The position numbers and the translations under genes are program-made. From positions 361,853-425,852 of the forward strand of contig CALFMK010000001.1 in assembly GCA_937879955.1 (NCBI GenBank): 64,000 nt of DNA, read 5' to 3'. The stretch comes from an uncultured bacterium. GTDB taxonomy: Bacteria; Patescibacteriota; Minisyncoccia; Phycocordibacterales; Phycocordibacteraceae. Shown here piece after piece: positions 5,636 to 17,227 of this stretch (the stretch's first letter is position 1; the number at the start of each line of letters is the position of its first letter). The notes beneath the pieces were generated by a model, which was not told where the DNA came from, made no database searches, and saw only the letters and a list, made by a program, of their open reading frames with translations.

Positions 5636-8152
5636 CTATGCCGCGTCCTTCTTCATCGCATCGAGCTTCTCCTGAAGCTCCTTCACCTTCTCAAGGATGT
5701 CCTTGATGAGGGCTGCGCGAGCCTCTTCGGTCATGGTCGGTGCCGGGGTCGCTGCGGCGATTGCAGCCATGGTGAGCGGGCCGAAGAATCCGGTCGCCGG
5801 TACGCCATGCGCTGCCTGCCATGCCTTGAGAGCCTCGGTCGTCATAGGACCGAAGAATCCGGTAGGCGCAGCGATCTTGAGGAGACCTGCGTCGATCAGC
5901 ATCTGCTGGAGCGCGTTCACGTCAGCTCCGTTAGAACCAGCAGAGAGGTTCGCAGAGAAGTTGTACGTGGACGCACCGAGGACCTGGCCTCCGTCTACTC
6001 CGCCGGCAGTACCGGTGCCGGTGTTAGTGGCAGTCGAGCGGCTGCTACCGCCAGAGCGGCCGCGGCTCGGCTCTTCAGGACGAAGAACGTAGACACGTCC
6101 GGTAACGGCGCCGGAAACACGCTCGGAAGAGACATACTGACCGTTCGTATCGATCACCGACACGTTAGCTTTGGCGATGTCATCAACCCAGATCGCGTCG
6201 TTCTCATCATGCTTGCTTACGCCGTTTACGGTGAGCTCAGCGGCAGTCACGACGTTCACGCCACGATCGACGTTCACACCGTTCCAACCGTTACCAGAGG
6301 TGGTGAGGTTCGTGACGGTCACGGTCGAGCCATTCACGAGAAGTCCGGACTTGCCGCTACTCTTAACGGTTACATCCGTAAGAATCACGCCAGTCGTAGC
6401 ATATGCCTGGATACCGTGAACACCTGCCTTACCAACAACCGTGAGGTCGTTCACGGAGACGTTTGCTCCAGTGATGAGAACGACCGACCCCGTGAGAGCA
6501 CCGGAAGCCGTGATGGTCTTTCCGTTACCGTTGATAGTTACGGCGTGATCAGCCGTCACCTGAGACGAGACCGAGAAGGAGTCGCTAAGAGTGATGGCTG
6601 GGATATGAGCTGCGAGAGCCGCATTGAGCTCTGCCTCGCTCTTAACCGTGTTGAGGTAGTACGCCTTAGCAGGTGCCTGATCAACAACGGTGTACTGTGC
6701 ATCTGCGTTGACACTGCCCTTGTTGGTGTCATCAACGAAAATCGCAGGGCCGATATCGGAATGCGAGCTCGTACCAGTAACGGTAAGGACTGCTGGAGTC
6801 GTTACGCCAGAACCCTGGTCAACATTGATGCCATGCCAGTTGTTTCCAGACGTGGTGACATTGTTAACGGTAACGGTCGAGCCGTTGACCATGATTCCGG
6901 ACTTGTTCGCGTTCTTCGCGGTTACGCCATCGAGCGTGACATTGGTTGCGACATATGCCTGGATACCCTGAACCGGAAGACGCGCTGCATCTACCGTAAG
7001 GTTCTTGATAGTTACGTCGCTAGCCGTGACGAGTACTACAGAACCGGTGACTCCGGTAGCTGCGGTTACGGTATGGCCGTTACCCTCAATGGTTACCTTC
7101 TTGTCGACATTTACCGTCGTGGTCTCGGTGACGTCATGGTTGAGCACGATGGTGTCGCCAGCGTTTGCTGCAGCGATAGCAGCGCTAAGCGTATCGAATG
7201 AATTCGTTACACCCATGTCGCTCCACTGAACCGTGTAAGGACGGTTACCGAACACGCCATCGGCTGGAGTTCCCTCTGCACCGTAGTTGTACTGGTTAAG
7301 GATTACCTCCTTGATAGCGCTAGTGCCTGCGGTTCCATCGAGAGGCACCTGACTAAGCAGGTCACCGTTGATGTAGTAGTTCCAGTTTCCATCAGCGACC
7401 TCTACCCGAAGTACGTAGGTCTGACCAGGAACAGCTTCCATGACGGGAGTCCATGAGCCGCTACCCCTGGAGTCCCAGACACGGAATACTGGATCCTTAG
7501 TAAGACTTGCGCTGTTTCCAGCGGTATATCCAGCAGCGCTGGTGTAGTCGATGATTCCCCACTCACCTACTGCGCCGTTTCCGGTCGCCCAGAGGCCTGC
7601 ACGGACAGCCGTGTTCTCCCATGCCGGATCGATATAGAGAGATGCCTCTACGGAAGAAACATTGTTAAGCGAGGCCTTACGTCCTTCGGTGCGATAGAAC
7701 GCGCTTCCATCCTGCTGAGCATCAAGCGTACCGTCGATTACGACAACACCACCATTCCAAGAATCCGGTGCATGACGGTCAATCGCCCAACTACCATCGA
7801 TAGCAACAGCGCGATCGATAGTCACCTTAGCTGGCTCGGGAGCAACAACAGCATCGAGAGAGATATCATCAACTGCCGAGAAAAGGCTTGCGACAGAATT
7901 GATGACTTCCTCAACGATCCCTGCCTCTTCCTCGACAACGGGGGTCTCTTCCTGATTAACAATCTCTTCGGACTCCTCGATAGGAGCCTCTTCAACAACG
8001 GGAGTCTCGATGACAACATCAGAGATGACCTCTGGCGTCGTCTCGACGACCTCGGCTGGTGCCTCCTCAGCGAAGACAGCCGCCGGAACGAACGATGCGA
8101 CGAGCGCGAGAAGCGTGAGCGCGCTCGCGAGCTTGGTAAAGAAATTGGTCAT
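5636..8152 (-). CDS. large secreted right-handed beta-helix repeat protein with C-terminal peptidoglycan-binding domain
   Basis: Signal peptide and acidic linker, then a lectin/jelly-roll-like segment. Two ~170-aa internally duplicated blocks carry NGSTVTV.N.TTSGN.W.G.NVD parallel beta-helix rungs. The C-terminus has a PG_binding_1-like motif (LQQMLIDAGLL...TGFFGP.T..A.KAWQ). Confidence 0.7.
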   Translation of the reverse strand: MTNFFTKLASALTLLALVASFVPAAVFAEEAPAEVVETTPEVISDVVIETPVVEEAPIEESEEIVNQEETPVVEEEAGIVEEVINSVASLFSAVDDISLDAVVAPEPAKVTIDRAVAIDGSWAIDRHAPDSWNGGVVVIDGTLDAQQDGSAFYRTEGRKASLNNVSSVEASLYIDPAWENTAVRAGLWATGNGAVGEWGIIDYTSAAGYTAGNSASLTKDPVFRVWDSRGSGSWTPVMEAVPGQTYVLRVEVADGNWNYYINGDLLSQVPLDGTAGTSAIKEVILNQYNYGAEGTPADGVFGNRPYTVQWSDMGVTNSFDTLSAAIAAANAGDTIVLNHDVTETTTVNVDKKVTIEGNGHTVTAATGVTGSVVLVTASDVTIKNLTVDAARLPVQGIQAYVATNVTLDGVTAKNANKSGIMVNGSTVTVNNVTTSGNNWHGINVDQGSGVTTPAVLTVTGTSSHSDIGPAIFVDDTNKGSVNADAQYTVVDQAPAKAYYLNTVKSEAELNAALAAHIPAITLSDSFSVSSQVTADHAVTINGNGKTITASGALTGSVVLITGANVSVNDLTVVGKAGVHGIQAYATTGVILTDVTVKSSGKSGLLVNGSTVTVTNLTTSGNGWNGVNVDRGVNVVTAAELTVNGVSKHDENDAIWVDDIAKANVSVIDTNGQYVSSERVSGAVTGRVYVLRPEEPSRGRSGGSSRSTATNTGTGTAGGVDGGQVLGASTYNFSANLSAGSNGADVNALQQMLIDAGLLKIAAPTGFFGPMTTEALKAWQAAHGVPATGFFGPLTMAAIAAATPAPTMTEEARAALIKDILEKVKELQEKLDAMKKDAA

Positions 8153-8379: not shown

Positions 8380-9507
8380 ATGAATATCCGCACCGCAGCA
8401 TCCGCACTCTTCGCAGGTCTCCTGCTCTTCGCACCGTCCGTCTCCTTCGCCCAGGACTTCCCTGCCGTTGAGCAGCAGTACCTCGAGAAGGCGAAGGTTA
8501 TCGAGGCGACGCCTTCGGTAGACAAGACCGTTGAAGGCACGAGCGTCGTGACGAAGACGCAGACCCTCACCGTGAAGGTGCTCGAGGGCGTGGACGAGGG
8601 GAAGATCGTCTCCTTCGAGAACGACTACACCCAGCTCGAGACCGGAGACGTGTTCTACGTCCGGCACATCGTGGGTGGGTTCGACCTCGAGACCTGGTCC
8701 GTATCCGACCCGTACCGTCTCGACGTCCTCATCGGCATCGGTGTTATATTCCTCCTCCTGGTATTCCTCTTCGGCGGCATCCAGGGCGTCCGCGGCTTAG
8801 CCTCCCTCGCCGGCTCACTCGTGCTCATCTTCTACGTCCTCCTTCCAGGGATCCACGGCGGCATCTCCCCTATCCTCGTCTCGCTCGGCGTAGCGATGCT
8901 CATAATCGTGGCCGGGTCCTACATCACGCACGGCTTCACCAAGACGACGACCGCCGCCATGCTCGGCATGCTCGCGACCATCGTGATAACAGGGATCGGC
9001 ACCTATATAGCCATCCACATGGCACAGCTCTCCGGATTCACCTCCGACGAGAACGTCTACCTGAACTTCAGCTCGGACGGGACCATCGACATGATCGCGC
9101 TCCTGTTCGGCGGCATCCTGATCGGCCTCCTCGGCGTCCTCTACGACTGCGCCATCGGCCAGGCGGTCGCGGTCGAGGAGCTCTTCGCGGCCAGCAAGGA
9201 CTACACGCGCAGGCAGGTCTACCTACGGGGCCTTCGCATCGGGCGCGAACATATCGGCGCGCTCATCAACACGCTCGCTATCGCGTACGTGGGCGCGTCC
9301 CTCCCGCTCCTCCTCCTTCTCAAGCAGTCCACCGCGAGCCCGCTCTACATCCTCAACGGCGAGGTATTCGCCACGGAAATCATCCGCATCCTCATGAGCG
9401 GCATCGGCATCATCCTCGCCGTTCCCGTAACGACCCTCATCGCCACCACGATGCTGAAGGACGCGAAGCGCTCGGGCATCCCGGCACACTCCCACGCGCA
9501 CGGGTAG
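8380..9507 (+). CDS. YibE/F family membrane protein
   Basis: Signal peptide plus soluble N-domain, followed by about 7 TM helices with a YibE/F-like topology. Confidence 0.55.
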   Translation: MNIRTAASALFAGLLLFAPSVSFAQDFPAVEQQYLEKAKVIEATPSVDKTVEGTSVVTKTQTLTVKVLEGVDEGKIVSFENDYTQLETGDVFYVRHIVGGFDLETWSVSDPYRLDVLIGIGVIFLLLVFLFGGIQGVRGLASLAGSLVLIFYVLLPGIHGGISPILVSLGVAMLIIVAGSYITHGFTKTTTAAMLGMLATIVITGIGTYIAIHMAQLSGFTSDENVYLNFSSDGTIDMIALLFGGILIGLLGVLYDCAIGQAVAVEELFAASKDYTRRQVYLRGLRIGREHIGALINTLAIAYVGASLPLLLLLKQSTASPLYILNGEVFATEIIRILMSGIGIILAVPVTTLIATTMLKDAKRSGIPAHSHAHG

Positions 9508-9556
9508 CGCGATTGACTCCCCTGGCATTTGCTATAGAGTAGGGATAGCTCTATAC

Positions 9557-9569
9557 GCAATTTATTTGC
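9557..9569. promoter_or_regulatory. candidate Fur-family operator box GCAATTTATTTGC (copy 1, upstream of the CDF transporter)
   Basis: A near-palindromic AT-rich 13-mer, identical to a copy at 11947..11959 in the divergent promoter of the Fur-family regulator. Confidence 0.5.
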
Positions 9570-9594: not shown

Positions 9595-10236
9595 ATGAAT
9601 ATCACCATGTCCGCAGACCACGCACACGACACCCCGAACAACCGCCATATCCCGATCTATACGTACGTATGGCTCTTGAGCCTGGGCATCGTGTCGCTTG
9701 AGCTCGCCGGATCCTGGTTCTCAGGAAGCCGCGCGCTCCTCGCTGACGTCGGCCACGTCTTGAGCGATACGCTGCTCGCGCTCGTGCCGCTCACGGCAGC
9801 GCTCTTCATGCGCGCGGGCGTGAGCAAGAAGCGCGTCGCGTTCCTGGCGAGCCTGGCGGCGGTCGCACTCCTCGTCTACGTCGGCCTGCACGTCGGTGGC
9901 GAGGCCTGGGAGGCGCTCATGGGCGAGGCGCATCACGAGCACGAGGTGAACGGCCTCATGCTGTTTGCGTTCTCAGGAGCGGCCGCGATCATGAACGTGT
10001 TCCAGCATCGCCTCCTCTCCCGGATCGATCCGGAGCATCACCATGGCGCGCACAAGGGGCTCCACTTCCACGTCCTCATGGATCTCGTGAAGAACCTCGT
10101 GCTCCCGGTGCTCGGTCTCCTCATCGCCTTCGAGCTCCTTCCTGACCACGCGGACCTCTGGGCAGCGCTCGCGATCGGCGGCCTCCTCATCGTCCGCGCG
10201 ATCATCCTGCTCGTGGGTATCCTGAAGCGCCGATAG
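9595..10236 (+). CDS. cation diffusion facilitator (CDF) family metal efflux transporter, TM domain only
   Basis: ALLADVGHVLSD and HGAHKGLHFHVLMDL motifs typical of CzcD/ZitB-type CDF TM helices II and V. It is His-rich and lacks the usual C-terminal cytoplasmic domain. Confidence 0.65.
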   Translation: MNITMSADHAHDTPNNRHIPIYTYVWLLSLGIVSLELAGSWFSGSRALLADVGHVLSDTLLALVPLTAALFMRAGVSKKRVAFLASLAAVALLVYVGLHVGGEAWEALMGEAHHEHEVNGLMLFAFSGAAAIMNVFQHRLLSRIDPEHHHGAHKGLHFHVLMDLVKNLVLPVLGLLIAFELLPDHADLWAALAIGGLLIVRAIILLVGILKRR

Positions 10237-10290
10237 GCACCGCAATGAATAACCCCCGTCGCTATCGCGACGGGGGTTTTATCTATTGCG

Positions 10291-10983
10291 CTACGCTGCG
10301 ACGCGCTCGAGCTTTCGCTCCCGGAGGAACGAGATGCCCGGGGCCGCGAGCGAGCGGAGGTCGGTATCGCGACGCGGGAGCCCGTACAGGATCCCCGCCA
10401 TCTTCTGATACGAGGCGATCTCCGCCCTACCCATGTCGAGGCTCCGATCCGTCCATCCGGCGTCCGAGAACGTCGGGACCCGGACGATCGCCGTACCTGC
10501 GGACTCGGCCAGCGAGCGCAGATGGTTCACCTGCGCGTACGCCGGAGAGCCGAGGATGTCGGCCTCGAAGCCGTCGCTGATGCAGCCGCAGTCGCAGACC
10601 AGGCGCAGCTGCATGCCGAGCTCGTCTCGCAGGACGCGGTCGAGCAGGTCCATGTTCCGCTCGGCGAGCGCCATGGACTCGAAGACCGTATGGAACGCGG
10701 CCATGTCCTCGGTCTGCACCCGCTCGAGCGTATCGAGGTCGAGTGCCGAGAACGGCATCATGGCCCACGGGTACATCCCGTGATCGCGGTGCTTGGCCCG
10801 GTCCATCATCTCGAGCACGGCGATGAGGACCGCCGGCTGCGGGACGTGATGGTCGGTGATGGCCGTCACGATCGAATCGATGGCCTTCGTCCCGAGGCAC
10901 TTCTGGTAGCGTGCGGCGATGAGCGGCACGTCGTCCGCGTGGAGCGGACGGTCGTAGGACGTTCCGGTAGCTGCATGGCACAT
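10291..10983 (-). CDS. hypothetical protein with CDCGC cysteine motif (possible metallocentre protein or assembly partner)
   Basis: Start chosen at the first Met after the 17-bp palindrome (alternative start at 11085). No recognisable family. Conserved-looking LVCDCGCISDGFEAD and HH/HRDH motifs. Downstream of the CooC-like ATPase on the same strand. Confidence 0.45.
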   Translation of the reverse strand: MCHAATGTSYDRPLHADDVPLIAARYQKCLGTKAIDSIVTAITDHHVPQPAVLIAVLEMMDRAKHRDHGMYPWAMMPFSALDLDTLERVQTEDMAAFHTVFESMALAERNMDLLDRVLRDELGMQLRLVCDCGCISDGFEADILGSPAYAQVNHLRSLAESAGTAIVRVPTFSDAGWTDRSLDMGRAEIASYQKMAGILYGLPRRDTDLRSLAAPGISFLRERKLERVAA

Positions 10984-11032
10984 GGCCAGCTCCTTATGGC
11001 TGCGTGAAAGGACAATGATGGCGCTGATGCAT

Positions 11033-11079
11033 CCATCGCCCGCGCCTCCTCGCTCTATACGCGGAGGCGCGGGCGATGG
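11033..11079. repeat. 17-bp perfect inverted repeat (CCATCGCCCGCGCCTCC / GGAGGCGCGGGCGATGG) with 13-nt loop
   Basis: Seen directly in the sequence. It lies between the CooC-like gene stop and the next gene start on the minus strand. There is no T-run, so it is not a canonical terminator. Confidence 0.7.
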
Positions 11080-11087
11080 GAACATCG

Positions 11088-11942
11088 CTAGAGCTTCGCC
11101 TTCTGTCGCTCCTCTTCGAACGCGCGCAGGCGCGCGAGCGTATCTTTCCCGTCTGCAGCCTTCTCCCGCAGGGTCGCGAGCATGGCCGTGCCTGCTGCGC
11201 GCGTCTCCTCGGAAAGGGCGGACATATCGTACGCGAGGAGCCCCGGATCGGCCGGGAGGCGACCGACGATACGGTCGCCCCACTCAGCATCGATCGCTTC
11301 CGTGAGCTCGGTCGCGCCCTGGACCTTGTTCACGACGACATAGAGCGGAAGTCCGGTGCGGTCGGCTATGCCCGCGACCTGCGCGAGCACGCGGATGCTG
11401 TTGCCATGCGGCTCGACCACCACGACCACGGCGTCCGCGCCGAGGAAGAGCCCGAAGTTCATCATGTCCGCGCCCGCGACGCCGTCGATGATCACGTCAG
11501 CACTGTTCCCTTCATCGAGGAGCGGGAGATAGTACTTGAGCGCGGCCGAATGCCCGTGCGCGCAGCGATCCGAGAACAGCACGTCCTCGCTACCGAGCCC
11601 GACCGCGATAAGGTCGACATTGTCCGAGACCGGCATGGAGACCTCGTCCGTGTACGGGTCCTTCGGCGACACCGTGAATGTCGGGAGTGCGCGGCCGTCG
11701 AGGACGATATCCTGCCAGCGTCGGTCCTCCCTCTGCCCCACCATCGCGCGGAACTCGTCATGACGGCGATGCATCGTCGGCGTCTCGCTCGTGACCGTAG
11801 CGCCGAGCAGGGACGCGAGGTCCATATTGTGGTCTGCATCGATGGCCAGGACCTTCCGTCCCTGTTCCTCGAGCAGCCGCGTTACGAGCCAGCTCACCGT
11901 ACTCTTCCCGCTCCCTCCCTTCCCGATGAATGCCAGTTTCAT
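11088..11942 (-). CDS. CooC/MinD-ParA-type P-loop ATPase (putative metallocentre insertion ATPase)
   Basis: Deviant Walker A (GKGGSGKST) then VLAIDADHNMDLASLLG, matching CooC-family nickel-insertion ATPases. Confidence 0.6.
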   Translation of the reverse strand: MKLAFIGKGGSGKSTVSWLVTRLLEEQGRKVLAIDADHNMDLASLLGATVTSETPTMHRRHDEFRAMVGQREDRRWQDIVLDGRALPTFTVSPKDPYTDEVSMPVSDNVDLIAVGLGSEDVLFSDRCAHGHSAALKYYLPLLDEGNSADVIIDGVAGADMMNFGLFLGADAVVVVVEPHGNSIRVLAQVAGIADRTGLPLYVVVNKVQGATELTEAIDAEWGDRIVGRLPADPGLLAYDMSALSEETRAAGTAMLATLREKAADGKDTLARLRAFEEERQKAKL

Positions 11943-11946
11943 ATAT

Positions 11947-11959
11947 GCAATTTATTTGC
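11947..11959. promoter_or_regulatory. candidate Fur-family operator box GCAATTTATTTGC (copy 2, divergent promoter between the CooC-like gene and the Fur-family gene)
   Basis: Identical 13-mer to 9557..9569, and the flanks also agree (ATA.GCAATTTATTTGC). Confidence 0.5.
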
Positions 11960-12015
11960 GTTTACTATACAGGGGAGGGGAAGTAATTGCAAACGGCTTG
12001 CGTTTGTTCCATACT

Positions 12016-12444
12016 ATGTCCATGAAAGCCACCGCGATCGATCCTGCGTCCCTCCTGCGCGAGGCCGGGCTCCGTGTCACCCCGGGCCGCCTCGAGCTCC
12101 TCAGCATCCTCGCGAGAGAGCCCAAGCCCCTCGCCGTCCACCAGATCGAGAAGAAGATGAAGGGCGCGCTCAACCAGGTCACGCTCTACCGCGCACTCGA
12201 GGCGCTCGAGAAGGCCGGCATCGTCTCGCGCGTGAACCTCGAGCACGACCACGCGCACTTCGAGCTCTCCGTAGGCCGTCCGCACCACCATCACGCGGTC
12301 TGCCGCGCCTGCGGGCTCGTGGAGGATATCGAGGTACCGCATGCGGCCCTGCCCCAGAAGGAAGCGGCGAAACAAGCGAAGGCGTTCGCGTCCATAGACC
12401 GCTACTCTCTCGAGTTCTTCGGCCTCTGCCGCGGCTGCGCGTAG
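12016..12444 (+). CDS. Fur-family metalloregulator (Fur/Zur/PerR-like)
   Basis: Winged-helix N-domain (LRVTPGRLELLSILA...VTLYRAL) and a C-terminal metal site (HHHHAVCRACG...CRGC). Start set at the first ATG after the divergent promoter. Confidence 0.75.
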   Translation: MSMKATAIDPASLLREAGLRVTPGRLELLSILAREPKPLAVHQIEKKMKGALNQVTLYRALEALEKAGIVSRVNLEHDHAHFELSVGRPHHHHAVCRACGLVEDIEVPHAALPQKEAAKQAKAFASIDRYSLEFFGLCRGCA

Positions 12445-12559: not shown

Positions 12560-13228
12560 ATGAGAATCCTAGTGATCGAGGACGAAGAGAAGATCTCCCG
12601 CTTCCTGCGGGACTCGTTCGAGGCCGAGTACTTCGCGGTAGACGTCGCGGAAGACGGCGAGCGCGGCTCTCTCTTCGCCCGCACCAACGAGTACGACCTC
12701 GTCGTGCTCGACAACATGCTCCCGAAGAAGGACGGCCTTCAGGTCTGCGAAGAGATCCGTGCAGCCGGGAAGACCATGCCCATCCTCGTCGTATCGGTGA
12801 AGACCGACGCGATGGACAAGGTCGACCTCCTGAACGCGGGCGCCGACGACTACCTCGCGAAGCCCTTCGTTCTCGAGGAGCTCCTCGCCCGCGCCCGCGC
12901 GCTCATGCGCCGCCCCGTCTCCATTGAGAGCGACGTGCTCACGGTCGAGGACATCACGCTCGATACCACGAGCGGCACCGCCAAGCGCGGCGACCGCGAC
13001 CTCGGACTCACCCGCAAGGAGTACATGCTCCTCCAGTACCTGATGCGCAACGAAGGCATCGTGCTCTCTCGCGGCATGATCCTGGAGCACGTGTGGGACA
13101 TGAGCGTGGACATCTTCTCGAACACCATCGAGTCTCACATCCTCTCGCTCCGCAAGAAGCTCAACGACATGGGACGCGAGCGCCTCATACAGACCGTATC
13201 GGGCCGAGGCTATCGCATCGGCGTCTAA
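12560..13228 (+). CDS. OmpR/PhoB-family response regulator
   Basis: Receiver domain (VIEDEE, DLVVLD, K-105 region) plus a C-terminal winged-helix (ILSLRKKL...SGRGYRIG). Confidence 0.85.
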   Translation: MRILVIEDEEKISRFLRDSFEAEYFAVDVAEDGERGSLFARTNEYDLVVLDNMLPKKDGLQVCEEIRAAGKTMPILVVSVKTDAMDKVDLLNAGADDYLAKPFVLEELLARARALMRRPVSIESDVLTVEDITLDTTSGTAKRGDRDLGLTRKEYMLLQYLMRNEGIVLSRGMILEHVWDMSVDIFSNTIESHILSLRKKLNDMGRERLIQTVSGRGYRIGV

Positions 13229-13374
13229 CCCATCGGTACGAGAATGCGCCTGCCGGCACATCGCTGGCAGGCGTTTTCGTATGTATGCACTCACCCGTGA
13301 CTTTATCTTTTTTCTAGATTTTCTTTATAAAAAATTTATCTCTTTGTTATGTTCTCTTCAGTATCTTCATACCT

Positions 13375-14064
13375 ATGAAGAACACAGGGACACTCGCGTT
13401 CGGCGACATGCGCGATGCTACGGTGCGCACGCGCGCCGAGATAGGGTTCGACGAGCGGGATACCTGGCGCGACGCGTCAGCCACGTTCACGGATCATACC
13501 CTCACGATCCAAGGTCACCCGGTGATGGAAGACTGGGAGGAGGGGTACATGAAGCGCCTCGCGCACATCTGCGCGGCGCAAGGCGGAACCGTCCTCGAGG
13601 TAGGATTCGGCATGGGCATCTCGGCGCGCCACATTCAGCGGCATCCTATAGACCGGCACATCGTGATAGAGGCGAACTGGGACGTCTTCGAGCAGCTCGT
13701 CTCGTTCGCGAAGTCCGCTGCGCATCCGGTCTCTCCCCTCTTCGGGTTCTGGGAGGACACGACCGCCCTGCTTCCGGACGCGAGCGTCTCCGGCATCCTC
13801 TTCGATACCTATCCGCTCACAGAGGAGGAGATACACAGGAACCACTTCCCGTTCTTCAAGGAGGCGCATCGTCTCCTGCGCCCTGGCGGCGTACTCACCT
13901 ACTACTCAGACGAGATCGACCGCTTCTCTGCAATGCATCGCTCCCTGCTCGAAGAGGCCGGGTTCTCCGACATACAGGGAGAGATATTCCCGGTCACGCC
14001 GCCCGCGGACTGCCAGTACTGGAAGAGCGCGACGATACTCGCCCCTATCGTACGAAAATCATGA
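13375..14064 (+). CDS. guanidinoacetate N-methyltransferase (GAMT)-like class I SAM-dependent methyltransferase
   Basis: Matches eukaryotic GAMT along the whole length (HPVMEDWEEGYM; GGTVLEVGFGMGIS; ILFDTYPLTEE; PPADCQYW; C-terminal APIVRKS). Confidence 0.7.
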   Translation: MKNTGTLAFGDMRDATVRTRAEIGFDERDTWRDASATFTDHTLTIQGHPVMEDWEEGYMKRLAHICAAQGGTVLEVGFGMGISARHIQRHPIDRHIVIEANWDVFEQLVSFAKSAAHPVSPLFGFWEDTTALLPDASVSGILFDTYPLTEEEIHRNHFPFFKEAHRLLRPGGVLTYYSDEIDRFSAMHRSLLEEAGFSDIQGEIFPVTPPADCQYWKSATILAPIVRKS

Positions 14065-14474
14065 CTACACTCCCGAAAGGCGCATATGGACTCCTGCTCG
14101 CGTTCGACGGCTACGATGCCTCGAGCGAACGGTGCGCCGATGTCGACCTGCTGCGCTCGGTCCTGCTCGAGCTTCCCGAGACCATAGGCATGCGCAGGCT
14201 CGGCGAGCCGCACACGGTATCCGTCGACGAGCCAGGCATCTCCGGGCTCTCCGGATTCACGTTCATCATGGAGTCGCACATAAGCATCCATACGTATTCC
14301 GAGCGCGGATTCGTCACGGCGGACATCTATTCCTGCAAGTGGTTCGACGCCGACGTGGCGGCGCGCTTCCTCGCCGACGCGTTCGCGATACCCTCCTATG
14401 AGACCAGCCATGTCGTCCGCGGCCTTCGTTTCGACAAGCTCCCGATCGCTTCAGGGGCGCGCGAGCGTCCCTGA
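14061..14474 (+). CDS. speH: class 1b pyruvoyl-dependent AdoMet-decarboxylase-like proenzyme (SpeH-like, which could equally be an Arg/Orn decarboxylase)
   Basis: The self-cleavage motif FIMESHISIHTYSE (ES-H-S) is present. ATGA overlap with the upstream methyltransferase. Confidence 0.75.
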   Translation: MTTLPKGAYGLLLAFDGYDASSERCADVDLLRSVLLELPETIGMRRLGEPHTVSVDEPGISGLSGFTFIMESHISIHTYSERGFVTADIYSCKWFDADVAARFLADAFAIPSYETSHVVRGLRFDKLPIASGARERP

Positions 14475-14485
14475 ATAACTGTTCT

Positions 14486-15235
14486 TTGACCAACTGGGAG
14501 AGTGCTATGACATCAGCGATACAGGTACGGAACGTCGAGAGGAAAGACCTGGCGACGCTCGCTCAACTAGAGACTGCCGTATGGACGGGCCTCGGCACGC
14601 CCATCCTTACGGAGAGCGTACTGACTGAATGGTTCGACGACGGGTCGCCGTTCTTCTTCATCGCGGAATTGGACGGCGTACCCTGCGGCTACTACTTCGG
14701 ACGCCGCATACGGTTCTCGATGGAAGAGCACCGCGCGTTCTTCAACCCTGCGCTCATGACGGGCCAAGGATGGAGCGCGCACCCGCATGTCCCTGACGGG
14801 AACTGCCTGTATGGGATCAATATCGTTTCCACCATACGAGGATCGGGACGGGCCCTGTACCAGGCCGTGCATGACCTACTCGAGGTGATGGGTCTCGATT
14901 ATTCGGTTGGCATCACGCGCCTCTCGGGCCTCGACGCCTATCTCTCTGGCATCGAGGCCAGAAACGGCGGGATCCTTCCATACGAGCAGGATGCGATCGC
15001 GCTCTGGTACGCGCACGAGAGCGCCGAGCGTCTCGGGCTTCGTTCCTGGAGCGAATGCCAGGCGAAGCCGGAGCTCGAAGGGCTGCCAGCACTCGAGAAT
15101 CCTGACCCCGTGCTAGCATTCCATGTACAAGGCACGACGTTCGGGATCCTCGGCATCCTTCCGGGATATATCGTTCCGGACCCGGAGAGCCGGGACTACG
15201 GAGCGACGATCGTATCCGCCTTCCCTCACCGATAA
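14486..15235 (+). CDS. GNAT-family N-acetyltransferase
   Basis: Motif A R/Q-x-x-G-x-G/A is present (TIRGSGRALYQ), with a beta-alpha architecture typical of GNAT. Confidence 0.55.
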   Translation: MTNWESAMTSAIQVRNVERKDLATLAQLETAVWTGLGTPILTESVLTEWFDDGSPFFFIAELDGVPCGYYFGRRIRFSMEEHRAFFNPALMTGQGWSAHPHVPDGNCLYGINIVSTIRGSGRALYQAVHDLLEVMGLDYSVGITRLSGLDAYLSGIEARNGGILPYEQDAIALWYAHESAERLGLRSWSECQAKPELEGLPALENPDPVLAFHVQGTTFGILGILPGYIVPDPESRDYGATIVSAFPHR

Positions 15236-15238
15236 GCC

Positions 15239-17227
15239 ATGTTCGCATTCACCTACGCAGCTGCCATATTAGCGACCGCATTCGCGGTTGCGGCAGCTGC
15301 TCTTCTTTTCAGGAGACGACGCATGCTCGACCTCGCGCTCGCGGCATATCTCTTCTCCGGGACGCTCTGGATAGGCGGGAACGCGGCAGCTGACATTTCC
15401 TACGTACCCTGGTTCCTCGTGCTCTCGAGCCAGATCGCCTTCTTCGGCGGCATCCTCAATCTCTTCTGCTTCATCCTGCTCGTGGACCTGCTCCTCGACA
15501 ACGCGTTCCCGCCATGGCGCAGGCTGTTCCTCTACGGCATACCGTGCCTCGTCCTTGCCGTATTCGGCTTCTCGCCGTACGGGATCGTGAGCATGTCCTT
15601 CCCGGCCGGCATGCCCGCGCAGATCGTCCCGGGCGTGATCTACTCGTTCGCGCTCGTCTTCTACATCGCGGGCCTGGCGTACGGCCTCATACGCCTGTGC
15701 CGCAGCCTTTCCCGCGAGTACGACCAGCTCCGCCGCACCCAGCTCCTCTACGTCCTCATCGGCCTCATCCTCACCATGACCGGGCAGGTGGTCTTCGACG
15801 TGATCCTGCCGCTCCTTGGCGAGCTACGCTTCTATACGGTAGGTCCGCTCACTTCGGTATTCTTCGGCTTCGGGTGCGCGTACGCGATCGCGCGGCATCA
15901 TCTCCTCGATATACGCATCGTGGCGCAGCGCGGCCTCATCTATTCCGTCCTGCTCGCCGGGATCGTCGGGCTCTATGTCGGGCTCGTGATGATGATGAGC
16001 CTCGTGCTGAGCGACTCGACCAGCGCGAGCATCTTCTTCTCGGCAGGTATCACGGTCGTCGCAGGCATCTTCGGTGCGCCCGCCGTCGAGCGGTATTTCC
16101 GGAAAGCGACCGACCGCTTCTTCTTCAAGGATATCTATGACTACGGCGCCGCGCTGCACACGCTCTCGAGCGTGCTGCACGCGAACGTCGCCTTCGCGGA
16201 CCTCGTGCGCGAATCGGAATCTGCGCTCCGTGAGATCCTCCGCGCCACCTACGTGCACGTCACGCTCGGCAGCTCCACAAGGAACGCGCCTGCGAAAGAC
16301 GCGTCCTTACGCATCCCGATCGAGCTCGATGGGGATGATATCGGCTGCATCTATATAGGAGAGAAGCGTTCAGGCGACCCCTACTCCCCCGAGGACATCC
16401 AGCTGCTCGAGACGTTCGCGTACCAGGCCGCGACCGCGCTCTCCCGCGCGCAGCTCCATGCGGAGGCGGAGCAGCATGCGGCAGCCCTCGAGACGAAGGT
16501 ACGCGAGCGCACCCGCGAGCTCTCCGAGGCCCATGACCGCGAGCGCCAGATGATAAATGACATATCGCACAACCTGCAGACCCCGCTGACCGTGCTCCAG
16601 ACGAAGCTTGACCAGCTCAAGCCCACCATGAAGGACGCGGCGGAGATCCGCTCCTTCGAGCAGTCTCTCGCCGGCTTCTCCGCGTTCGTGTACGACCTCC
16701 TCGCGCTCGCCCGCCTCGAGGGCGGCAGGAAGCCCGAGTTCGAGCCGGTCTCCTTGAGCGCGCTCCTGCGCGACCTCGCCGAAGAGGTTGAGACGATCGC
16801 CGCGGATCGCGGCATCAGCGTGAAAAGAGACATCGCGAACGGCATGCGCGTGTCAGGCGACGAGCGCAGGCTCCGCGAGGCGTTCATGAACGTCGCGAGC
16901 AACGCGCTCAAGTACATGCGCGAGAGAGGCGAACGGCTCGTATCGCTCGTCGCGCATGCCGAGGACGGCATGGCCGTCGTCACGATTAAGGATACGGGTA
17001 TCGGGATCGCGAAGAGCGACCTTCCTCATGTGTTCGAGCGCTTCTATCGCGGCAAGGAGACACCGAAGGAGATGAAAGGCACGGGCCTCGGCCTCCCTAT
17101 CTCGAAGCTCATCGTCGAGCAGCACGGAGGCACTATCGCGGCCGAGAGCGAGCCCGGAGCCGGTACCATCATAGAGATACGGCTCCCGCTCATGCACGGC
17201 CAGGAGCGCTCCAGCCTCACCGACTAG
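15239..17227 (+). CDS. sensor histidine kinase with multi-TM (about 7 helices) N-terminal sensor domain
   Basis: H-box HNLQTPLTV and HATPase_c N/G boxes (NALKYM, DTGIGI, GTGLGLPISK) are present, and the N-terminal 280 aa are hydrophobic. Confidence 0.85.
   Translation: MFAFTYAAAILATAFAVAAAALLFRRRRMLDLALAAYLFSGTLWIGGNAAADISYVPWFLVLSSQIAFFGGILNLFCFILLVDLLLDNAFPPWRRLFLYGIPCLVLAVFGFSPYGIVSMSFPAGMPAQIVPGVIYSFALVFYIAGLAYGLIRLCRSLSREYDQLRRTQLLYVLIGLILTMTGQVVFDVILPLLGELRFYTVGPLTSVFFGFGCAYAIARHHLLDIRIVAQRGLIYSVLLAGIVGLYVGLVMMMSLVLSDSTSASIFFSAGITVVAGIFGAPAVERYFRKATDRFFFKDIYDYGAALHTLSSVLHANVAFADLVRESESALREILRATYVHVTLGSSTRNAPAKDASLRIPIELDGDDIGCIYIGEKRSGDPYSPEDIQLLETFAYQAATALSRAQLHAEAEQHAAALETKVRERTRELSEAHDRERQMINDISHNLQTPLTVLQTKLDQLKPTMKDAAEIRSFEQSLAGFSAFVYDLLALARLEGGRKPEFEPVSLSALLRDLAEEVETIAADRGISVKRDIANGMRVSGDERRLREAFMNVASNALKYMRERGERLVSLVAHAEDGMAVVTIKDTGIGIAKSDLPHVFERFYRGKETPKEMKGTGLGLPISKLIVEQHGGTIAAESEPGAGTIIEIRLPLMHGQERSSLTD

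Follow-up and report, generated by a model that had tools for sequence, protein, structure and literature searches.

A CooC/MinD-class ATPase and an orphan Cys/His protein form a genuine conserved gene pair, found in the 64,000-nucleotide stretch of DNA analyzed here (the window), from a member of the Parcubacteria with a tiny genome, and at related loci. As the two are always found together behind an operator of the zinc-regulator type, they probably represent a new kind of metal-handling pair. The reading that we favor, and to which we give an even chance, is that of an ATPase metallochaperone induced by zinc starvation and working with a partner or client of its own, encoded by a two-gene module of the Parcubacteria under a Zur-like repressor. 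The metal itself is most likely zinc. The features of the locus are compiled in Table 1.

Table 1. Features of the ATPase/partner locus and its surroundings, in window coordinates.
Feature	Position	Strand	Remarks
Operator copy 3	9557..9569	.	Downstream of CDF promoter
Short CDF transporter, co-regulated neighbour	9595..10236	+	213 aa; Pfam Cation_efflux 4.5e-14
Canonical bidirectional intrinsic terminator	10251..10278	.	12-bp stem and T-run; ends CDF and Cys genes
Orphan Cys/His protein (partner)	10291..10983	-	230 aa; starts MCHAATG after AAGGAG Shine-Dalgarno
Pyrimidine-rich motif region	10990..11012	-	TCCTTTC at 11006-11012, preceded by CCAYC
Intercistronic RNA hairpin	11026..11086	-	Starts 2 nt past ATPase stop codon
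CooC/MinD-class P-loop ATPase	11088..11942	-	284 aa; Pfam and PDB sequence matches
Operator box 1 (GCAATTTATTTGC)	11947..11959	.	5-17 nt downstream of ATPase-promoter -10, 5 nt upstream of ATG
Predicted sigma-70-like promoter of ATPase operon	11964..11992	-	TTGCAA, 17 nt, TATAGT; consensus match only
Operator box 2 (GCAAACGGCTTGC)	11989..12001	.	Overlaps ATPase-promoter -35; upstream of divergent fur
Fur-family metalloregulator	12013..12444	+	143 aa, two CxxC pairs, divergent; Pfam FUR 7.6e-21

Conservation of the gene pair

The initial annotation had proposed that the ATPase and the Cys gene belong together, and an analysis of co-occurrence bears this out. The Cys gene was found at 14 distinct loci, each of which has the ATPase directly upstream on the same strand, and the arrangement extends to very distant members of the family, with the order of ATPase and partner kept even for partner homologs at profile E 1e-6 (L019/L020) and at 36% identity (L009). 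At the level of sequence clusters, 27 of the 46 partner clusters have a longest contig equal in size to that of an ATPase cluster. Other arrangements do occur: in L018 a distant partner homolog follows fur with no ATPase in between, and in the ATPase subgroup L011, with the motif CAHGL, the downstream genes differ. Alignment of downstream proteins to the partner family with hhalign yielded a probability of 36% for L010, confined to the CDCxC hairpin region, and no relationship for L011 (4.5%). As a scan of GTDB genomes returned two loci and a scan of metagenomes six, the module family must be considered rare. The initial annotation had named two outcomes that would count against the pair, assignment of the Cys protein to a known family and a lack of co-occurrence elsewhere, and neither was observed. 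A literature search for links between CooC-like ATPases and zinc or Patescibacteria came up empty, and one for YibE/F yielded nothing pertinent.

The ATPase

The assignment of the 284-aa protein as a CooC-like ATPase, made initially from the sequence alone, is corroborated by a match to PF01656 CbiA at 3e-12 (47 bits, with a Pfam cutoff of 25.4) and by CooC1 as the top-scoring PDB sequence (3kje; E 4e-9, 25% identity over 226 aligned residues). Residues 7-14, GKGGSGKS, constitute a deviant Walker A motif with the signature lysine (xKGGxGK[ST]) that is invariant in 42 homologs, and in its fold the protein belongs to the MinD/ParA/CooC/NifH superfamily (SIMIBI, PF01656 CbiA). No match to PF02492, the G3E GTPase domain, was found in the ATPase, which is thus not a COG0523 protein as defined by G3E and CxCC.

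In CooC1, Cys112-x-Cys114 bind Zn/Ni at the dimer interface (PMC6006190). The residues that align to Cys112/Cys114 are Cys127-Ala-His129, so that the strictly conserved Cys-x-Cys of CooC is not present as such, and the complete motif reads Cys127-Ala-His129-Gly-His131 (CAHGH). Four residues, C127, H129, H38 and H58, are invariant in the 42 sequences at identities down to 44%, with His38 residing in an invariant DxDHNMD motif, and His131 is kept in most members.

The partner protein

The product of the Cys gene, which is 230 and not 231 aa in length, had been termed unclassifiable, and it has kept this status. There was no Pfam or NCBIfam match above noise and no PADLOC or PDB relative by profile, and the structure model, confident and of a mixed alpha/beta type, found no structural match in a search of the PDB. 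An earlier description of the protein as His-rich was overstated, for its conserved histidines are H46 and H98 only.

The conserved features comprise an N-terminal Met-Cys, the motifs DRP, PFSAxD, RVQ, FH98xVFES and LDM, and a C-terminal -VAA. Residues 128-139, LVCDCGCISDGF, hold the conserved C130-D-C132-G, which is placed on a beta-hairpin turn. Over a range of 16-60% identity, S79, H98, C132, G133 and R156 are near-invariant, position 130 is occupied in most cases by Cys or His, and a Met-Cys start is seen in most members. Cys2 and Cys130 are not universal across the wider family, leaving C132 as the only invariant cysteine. The invariant polar residues are D11, R12, S79, R88, Q90, N110, R156, E160, D183 and E188, and so many of them look more like those of an enzyme than of a simple metal carrier.

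The intercistronic hairpin

ATPase and Cys gene are separated by a spacer of 104 nt. The perfect 17-bp inverted repeat noted here by the initial annotation is present, although its coordinates, given as 11033..11079, were one base off: the stem core pairs positions 11032-11048 with 11062-11078, and the hairpin extends to 27-nt arms of 85% complementarity (11026-11052 and 11060-11086). The spacer folds with -59.3 kcal/mol vs -36.4 +/- 3.7 kcal/mol in dinucleotide shuffles, corresponding to z = -6.2. A significantly stable hairpin is found in 13 of the 14 loci, starting 1-6 nt past the ATPase stop codon and with z from -2.4 to -6.2. Its position is conserved throughout, while the stems of 15-26 bp are unrelated in sequence and have undergone complete sequence turnover. 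The exception is the AT-rich L004 (z = -0.7), with a shorter, terminator-like stem and a T-run. A strong stem-loop right past the ATPase stop codon is also seen in L010 and L019/L020. No Rfam family matches the element; the best hits at 11033-11079 are miRNA/sRNA models with 17-20 bits vs gathering thresholds of 80-93.

Most likely, the hairpin would uncouple the two cistrons in their expression or stability, be it as a protector of an mRNA 3'-end, as a processing site or as a partial attenuator, and it would not be a protein-binding palindrome. It is rather unlikely that the hairpin is nothing more than a factor-independent terminator or attenuator, with the Cys gene transcribed from a promoter of its own in the spacer. 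The L004 stem with its T-run does resemble a classical terminator, the L004 spacer contains a copy of the operator, and a conserved TCTTTCA motif is situated between hairpin and Shine-Dalgarno sequence. However, in the window, where the stem precedes GGAUGCAUCAGCG, and in most other loci the hairpin is not followed by a U-tract, and a stem with U-tract, as required for an intrinsic terminator, occurs only in the AT-rich L004. The terminator scan made no call at 11026-11086, though it did detect the one at 10251-10278, showing that the same genome uses U-tract terminators. The spacer was also found to hold no promoter-like site, and the invariable order of the two genes points to co-transcription.

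The pyrimidine-rich TCCTTTC is found about 10 nt upstream of the Shine-Dalgarno sequence of the Cys gene (AAGGAG, 10990-10995). A motif of this kind, CCAWC...TCTTTCA, is seen again in about 10-12 of the 14 spacers, and also in L010. We further considered that ribosome occupancy might act as a switch, with the ribosome opening the 5' arm as it terminates and altering the accessibility of the Cys-gene Shine-Dalgarno sequence. Constrained partition functions for 14 loci revealed no consistent change, and this candidate was rejected.

The loop of the hairpin had furthermore been noted to share a 10-mer with the hairpin next to the CDF promoter. The sequence CTCTATACGC indeed occurs in exactly two copies, at 9549 and 11053, whereas for any given 10-mer about 0.1 additional exact copies would be expected over both strands (128 kb). 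The copies are real, but as the hairpin loops of the other 13 loci are unrelated to this 10-mer, they establish no meaningful link, and we rejected the 10-mer as a regulatory connection. The real shared element is the operator GCAA-N5-TTGC, which lies outside the hairpin and beside the CDF copy of the 10-mer.

Operator, regulator and metal context

The palindromic GCAA-N5-TTGC is present in three copies in the 64 kb vs 0.48 expected, and all of them are located at the divergent ATPase/fur promoter and at the CDF promoter. The putative Fur regulon of the initial annotation is upheld, as a Fur-family regulon, by the operator, which overlaps the -35 element of the ATPase promoter and also lies just downstream of its -10 element. 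Paired boxes are found at the equivalent place in L002, L010, L011 and L015, and the operator occurs upstream of the ATPase or of a cobW-ATPase arrangement in 11 loci, namely L001, L002, L004, L007-L013 and L015. In L015 the box also precedes znuA, and in L004 and L009 it precedes cobW. Eleven loci have an adjacent fur gene (the window, L001, L002, L007, L008, L010, L011, L013, L015, L018 and L019), the product of which is the presumed repressor of the module. The regulator is about equally similar to the structures of Fur, Nur, PerR and Zur, which its sequence does not separate.

The genes neighbouring the module at related loci encode ZIP, ZnuABC and COG0523 proteins. The ZnuA homologs carry loops rich in His, Asp and Glu, and a COG0523 gene (a separate, true cobW) shares the operon with the module or adjoins it in L004, L009 and L010. 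With its ZIP and COG0523 genes and a znuA whose product has a His-rich loop, the regulon looks Zur-like, directed towards zinc rather than iron, and it has the composition of a Zur regulon, a fur-family gene together with a common palindromic operator at the promoters of zinc uptake genes. Note that the CDF protein is an exporter under the same operator, an odd member for a zinc-starvation regulon. In accordance with the initial survey, a scan of ten large ORFs of the window detected no CODH, hydrogenase or urease, and a CODH was likewise not found among the neighbours in 16 loci.

Proposed mechanism and alternatives

With metal in plentiful supply, most likely zinc, the metallated Fur-family protein would occupy the two GCAA-N5-TTGC boxes at the operon promoter, and once the metal becomes scarce the operon would be transcribed along with the uptake genes for ZnuABC and ZIP and the COG0523 GTPase. 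CooC assembles a Cys4 nickel/zinc site across its dimer interface from Cys112-x-Cys114. The ATPase would act as a nucleotide-dependent dimer of the CooC/MinD class, in which Cys127-x-His129, joined by His131 in most members, would form a Cys2His2-4 site that should be better suited to Zn(II), and binding and hydrolysis of ATP would gate the capture and release of the metal. The partner would act as recipient or donor of the metal, with a candidate site made up of His98, [Cys/His]130-x-Cys132 and probably the N-terminal Cys2. It could be the client that is being metallated, or else a co-chaperone as CooT, HypA and UreE are for their respective NTPases. As the initial annotation had suggested, the two proteins may be viewed as a putative chaperone-and-client pair for metallocentre assembly. 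The layout of the locus, the gene order, the distribution of the operator, the conservation of the motifs and the partner's status as a structural orphan are observed, and the metal, the site in the ATPase dimer, the transfer and its direction, the activity of the partner and the role of the hairpin are inferred.

Three other readings of the module were weighed. In the first, which we deem improbable, the partner is a zinc-independent back-up enzyme produced under zinc starvation, and the ATPase is its maturase, inserting Fe, Ni or Co at the Cys/His site. It would stand in for some zinc enzyme, in the manner of FolE2 and other alternative enzymes of Zur regulons. The Zur-type regulon context would agree with such a role, the many invariant polar residues in the partner suggest catalysis, and relatives of the ATPase such as CooC insert Ni (PMC9164220). 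The partner, however, resembles no enzyme family or fold, a Ni or Co transporter was not found in any locus, and COG0523, ZIP and the His-loop ZnuA point to zinc itself.

Still less credible is an iron or Fe-S system, with a true Fur as regulator, the ATPase as a carrier akin to Mrp/NBP35/NifH that holds a bridging cluster via Cys127/His129, and the CDCGC protein as the Fe-S recipient. The regulator does have Fur proteins as its best sequence matches, the ATPase yields faint Pfam matches of the NifH and NUBPL type and counts NifH, Cfd1 and ApbC among its structural neighbours, and the partner contains clustered cysteines. Nevertheless, both the CxxC of Mrp/NBP35 and the cluster cysteines of NifH are absent from the ATPase, the partner retains C132 alone as an invariant cysteine, the neighbours are of the zinc type, and no Suf, Isc or iron-uptake genes were found in any locus. 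A non-metal system of the ParA/MinD type, in which the ATPase positions or regulates the partner (cf. MinD-MinE, FlhG, ParA-ParB) and the metal-regulated promoter is incidental, has a similarly slim chance, given the invariant Cys-x-His exactly at the metal site of CooC, the further invariant histidines, the close linkage to Fur, COG0523, ZIP and Znu seen at more than 10 loci, and the finding of no DNA-binding or MinE-like feature and no match to a defence system (PADLOC).

Should the zinc metallochaperone reading prove true, the module would provide a natural combination of chaperone and candidate client whose transfer step is directly testable in vitro, and it would assign a role to a family of orphan fold. 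It would also show how the ultra-small genomes of the CPR, which keep few accessory genes, handle metal scarcity. The operator GCAA-N5-TTGC gives a practical means of predicting which genes form the zinc regulon in Parcubacteria.

Comparison with known systems

The closest parallel is CooC, as represented by CooC1 from C. hydrogenoformans (3kje/3kji). Both proteins have the deviant Walker A motif GKGGxGK[ST] and carry their metal-ligand motif at an equivalent place on the face that forms the dimer, and both are encoded beside a partner that starts with Met-Cys, which in the CooC co-chaperone CooT provides the Ni ligand Cys2 (PMC6006190). In contrast to the Cys-x-Cys of CooC, the ATPase described here has a Cys-x-His(-x-His) motif, with His as the second ligand residue in each of the 42 homologs, and it possesses the extra invariant histidines His38 (DxDHNMD) and His58. 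The protein exceeds CooC by 30 aa in length, featuring an insertion around residues 55-100 as well as a C-terminal helix, and instead of a coo/acs operon with a CODH/ACS gene nearby its surroundings are those of a Zur-like zinc regulon.

With the COG0523/G3E GTPases (ZigA, ZagA, YeiR, Zng1) the ATPase shares its membership in the SIMIBI-class NTPases, the presumed induction via a Zur-type repressor together with zinc uptake genes and a presumed hand-over of metal to a client. Zinc allocation under starvation is attributed to these GTPases, the clients of which are mostly unknown. Unlike them, the present protein is an ATPase of the MinD/CooC type and not a G3E GTPase, it has neither the CxCC motif nor the CobW_C domain, and it comes with an obligatory adjacent partner gene, which most COG0523 genes do not.

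The partner itself is reminiscent of CooT, HypA and UreE in being a small protein encoded beside an NTPase and, in most members, in its conserved Met-Cys. In HypA, the metal ligand is an N-terminal Met-His-Glu motif, and CooT is a seven-stranded, all-beta protein of about 7 kDa. The partner, at 230 aa, is an alpha/beta protein with no PDB neighbour and no sequence similarity to these carriers, and it cannot be classed as CooT-like.

The hairpin resembles REP or puf/mal-type intercistronic hairpins in that its position is conserved and its sequence free, here with a long GC-rich stem directly past the upstream stop codon and without a U-tract. Unlike REP-class hairpins it is not a repeated element of the genome and has no Rfam family, and it is bound to one gene pair across divergent genomes with GC contents of 17-65%.

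For P-loop ATPase metallochaperones there is essentially one known case, CooC for nickel (PMC9164220). We regard it as possible, though somewhat short of an even chance, that the module contains the first MinD/CooC-class ATPase for zinc (or zinc-starvation) metallation, with a Cys-x-His inter-subunit site, an obligatory partner of new fold and a conserved intercistronic hairpin of its own. Confined to the CPR/Parcubacteria, it would constitute a second, independent NTPase solution for allocating zinc, beside the COG0523 GTPases.

Conserved pairing of the two genes

In each of the 14 distinct loci retrieved that carry the gene for the Cys protein (the window, L001, L002, L004, L006-L009 and L012-L017), the gene for the CooC/MinD-type ATPase lies directly upstream on the same strand, at a distance of 73-133 nt (104 nt in the window). 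The two are a real pair, as the initial annotation had proposed; both outcomes that would have overturned it, lack of co-occurrence and a known family for the Cys protein, were looked for and neither was obtained. Their order is kept for a Cys-protein homolog of 36% identity (L009), and in L019/L020 the arrangement fur-ATPase-partner is retained with the partner P0203, which is detectable only by profile (E 1e-6). For 27 of 46 Cys-protein clusters, the longest contig equals in size that of an ATPase cluster. Two loci at the edge of the family depart from this order. In L018, a contig of only 2 kb, a partner homolog comes after fur without an intervening ATPase gene, and L011 combines an ATPase subgroup with the motif CAHGL and two unrelated small ORFs downstream. 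In this part of L011 (5001-6632) the ORFs, of 145 and 123 aa, replace the Cys protein without a spacer or hairpin, still between fur and ZIP.

Features of the window around the ATPase and Cys-protein genes
Feature	Position	Strand or orientation	Remarks
Secreted protein, 838 aa	5636-8152		
YibE/F-family membrane protein	8380-9507		
Operator copies	9557, 11947, 11989		GCAA-N5-TTGC
Short CDF transporter gene, 213 aa	9595-10236	convergent with Cys gene	
Canonical bidirectional terminator	10251-10278		between CDF and Cys genes
Cys-protein gene, 230 aa	10291-10983	minus	start MCHAATG; AAGGAG Shine-Dalgarno ahead of start
Perfect 17-bp stem	11032-11048 with 11062-11078		in the intergenic spacer
ATPase gene, 284 aa	11088-11942	minus	
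Fur-family gene	12013-12444	divergent from ATPase gene	
Response regulator (OmpR-type) and histidine kinase	12560-17227		
Methyltransferase-like ORF, then AdoMet-decarboxylase-like ORF	13375-14474		

Beyond the module, the large secreted protein contains repeated segments resembling a right-handed helix (NGHT/NGKT...VTxxNLT) and a peptidoglycan-binding-like repeat at its C-terminus. The OmpR-type response regulator and the histidine kinase are encoded beside the methyltransferase-like ORF and an ORF that resembles AdoMet-decarboxylase by the look of its sequence.

The Cys protein is an orphan

The description of the Cys protein as unclassifiable was borne out, apart from small points such as its length, given earlier as 231 rather than 230 residues. 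It has no match in Pfam, NCBIfam or PADLOC, PDB sequence and profile searches returned only noise, and no two of 44 family members have a Pfam family in common. When 1.84 billion representative proteins were searched exhaustively by profile, no more than 66 clusters came up, and their members are about 110-290 aa long with a single domain. Relatives that bear a name are MAGs of Parcubacteria or Paceibacterota; the window, too, is from a Parcubacteria/Paceibacterota (CPR) genome, and the identical Cys protein is recorded on an NCBI contig of 591 kb. The protein is an orphan from a rare family that is limited to uncultivated CPR bacteria.

Invariant residues in the close family include M1-C2, D11-R12-P13, H46, P77-F-S-A-x-D82, R88-V-Q90, F97-H98-x-V-F-E102, N110, C130-D-C132-G133, R156 and L182-D-M184; with only H46 and H98 conserved among the histidines, the label 'His-rich' was overstated. 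Across the whole family (16-60% identity) S79, H98, C132, G133 and R156 survive, Cys or His predominates at position 130, and most members begin with Met-Cys. In a confident AlphaFold model (pLDDT 92.8, pTM 0.90) the [C/H]-x-C-G motif lies at the turn where the predicted strands 124-129 and 133-138 form a beta-hairpin, and a helix starts at H98, as would be expected for a Cys/His metal site. About half of the members end in -[V/I/L]-A-A or -A-A (...ERVAA in the window, 10291-10305). By analogy with the ClpXP-recognised end of the ssrA tag, this suggests a protein possibly short-lived by design.

The ATPase resembles CooC in architecture

CooC1 is the best PDB sequence match of the ATPase (E 4e-9); it also ranks first in identity (25%) and in the length of the structural alignment. 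HMMER aligns Cys127 and His129 precisely with Cys112 and Cys114 of CooC1, the two ligands of Zn or Ni between the subunits of the CooC dimer (PMC6006190), and the architecture is thus CooC-like. In 42 homologs, the most distant at 44% identity, neither Cys127 nor His129 varies, nor do His38 (in DxDHNMD) and His58; position 131 carries His in most members and Leu in those of the L011 type. However, the ATPase lacks the defining Cys-x-Cys of CooC, and no CODH lies among its neighbours in 16 loci; it is therefore not filed as a CooC. As had been noted, no CODH, hydrogenase or urease is encoded among the ten large ORFs scanned in the window.

A probable zinc-type regulon

A 27-nt direct repeat (D5) is common to the CDF and ATPase promoters, and its core is the palindrome GCAA-N5-TTGC, the presumed operator of the Fur-family regulator, of which the 64-kb window has only three copies where 0.48 would be expected. 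Two of them lie between the ATPase gene and fur: one overlaps the -35 hexamer of the predicted ATPase promoter (TTGCAA-17-TATAGT) and the other lies just downstream of the -10 hexamer, which is a standard repression layout. The pattern also closely precedes the ATPase gene in L001, L002, L007, L008, L010-L013 and L015. In L004 and L009, with their cobW-ATPase-partner operons, it stands ahead of cobW, and in L015 it stands ahead of znuA as well. The module adjoins a Fur-family gene in 11 loci and ZIP transporters in five (L002, L007, L008, L010, L011), and ZnuABC is present in two (L001, L015). The two ZnuA homologs have long loops rich in His, Asp and Glu, as is characteristic of zinc-specific ZnuA. 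These neighbours fit a zinc regulon. As the regulator type is not separable by sequence similarity, the regulator is called Zur-like by regulon content, which refines the Fur regulon proposed initially.

The GTPase cobW (COG0523) is encoded in the same operon as, or adjoining, the pair in three loci (L004 3897-4979, L009 3925-5004, L010 2958-4016); some lineages therefore combine two types of NTPase chaperone. In L004, whose genome is AT-rich, an operator copy (5931-5943) lies inside the spacer after the terminator-like hairpin, where a separate regulated promoter may serve the partner gene. A CDF gene also adjoins the pair in L015 and lies close to it in L008. In the window, where the CDF transporter has no cytoplasmic C-terminal domain, its operator lies downstream of the promoter (region 9513-9569), as for uptake-type genes; repression of an exporter by a metal-loaded regulator is counter-intuitive. 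The YibE/F-family protein, of unknown function, adjoins the module in four loci (the window, L002, L008 and L011) and might be one more neighbour linked to metals; the window shows no operator copy ahead of its gene.

A structured spacer

The perfect 17-bp palindrome reported between the genes is present, one base from its first coordinates, and extends to 27-nt arms of 85% complementarity. Base pairing is predicted to begin 1-6 nt past the ATPase stop codon in each of the 14 loci, and 13 form a stable hairpin of 15-26 bp with MFE z-scores of -2.4 to -6.2 against dinucleotide shuffles; none of 200 shuffles reached the observed MFE in nine loci, and one to five did in the other four. The exception is L004 (z = -0.7), with a shorter terminator-like stem and a T-run. 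Strong stem-loops directly follow the ATPase stop in L010 and L019/L020 as well. The stem sequences share nothing, and conservation of structure with free sequence argues for a role at the RNA level and disfavours a protein-binding palindrome. In the window no U-tract follows the stem, although real terminators of the same genome have one, and no Rfam family matched the hairpin. A CCAWC...TCTTTCA motif recurs between hairpin and Shine-Dalgarno; a test for a ribosome-driven structural switch in the spacer was negative. Our preferred reading is a stabiliser, processing site or partial attenuator between the two cistrons, which would set the ratio of their proteins. The 10-mer CTCTATACGC, through which the loop had been linked to the CDF promoter region, does occur exactly twice in the window, but as a link it is weak, being one recurrence of a 10-mer chosen post hoc from a loop conserved in no related locus.

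Proposed function and relation to known metallochaperones

Taken as a whole, the data are best read as an ATPase induced by zinc limitation that exchanges metal with its partner, a reading to which we give an even chance. Under zinc limitation the Zur-like repressor would leave both operator boxes, the ATPase dimer would capture metal at a Cys2His2-4 inter-subunit site, and ATP would drive exchange with the His/Cys site of the partner, either a client or a CooT/HypA-like co-chaperone. We consider it unlikely that the partner is instead a back-up enzyme that needs no zinc and is matured with another metal. Less probable still, beside the ZIP and ZnuABC neighbours, is a system for iron or Fe-S whose regulator is a true Fur, a type that sequence similarity does not set apart. 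The same low probability applies to a non-metal ParA/MinD-type ATPase with an adaptor, against which stand the invariant residues aligned with the metal ligands of CooC1.

Compared with known systems, metal exchange by the ATPase and its partner would constitute a novel form of NTPase metallochaperone, since CooC, for nickel, is the one well-characterised P-loop ATPase metallochaperone according to a 2022 review (PMC9164220), since the NTPases so far described for zinc starvation are COG0523 GTPases (PMC2770081), and since our literature search found no CooC-like ATPase linked to zinc or to Patescibacteria. The module of the window and its relatives, a putative metallochaperone, pairs an ATPase with a partner of orphan fold.
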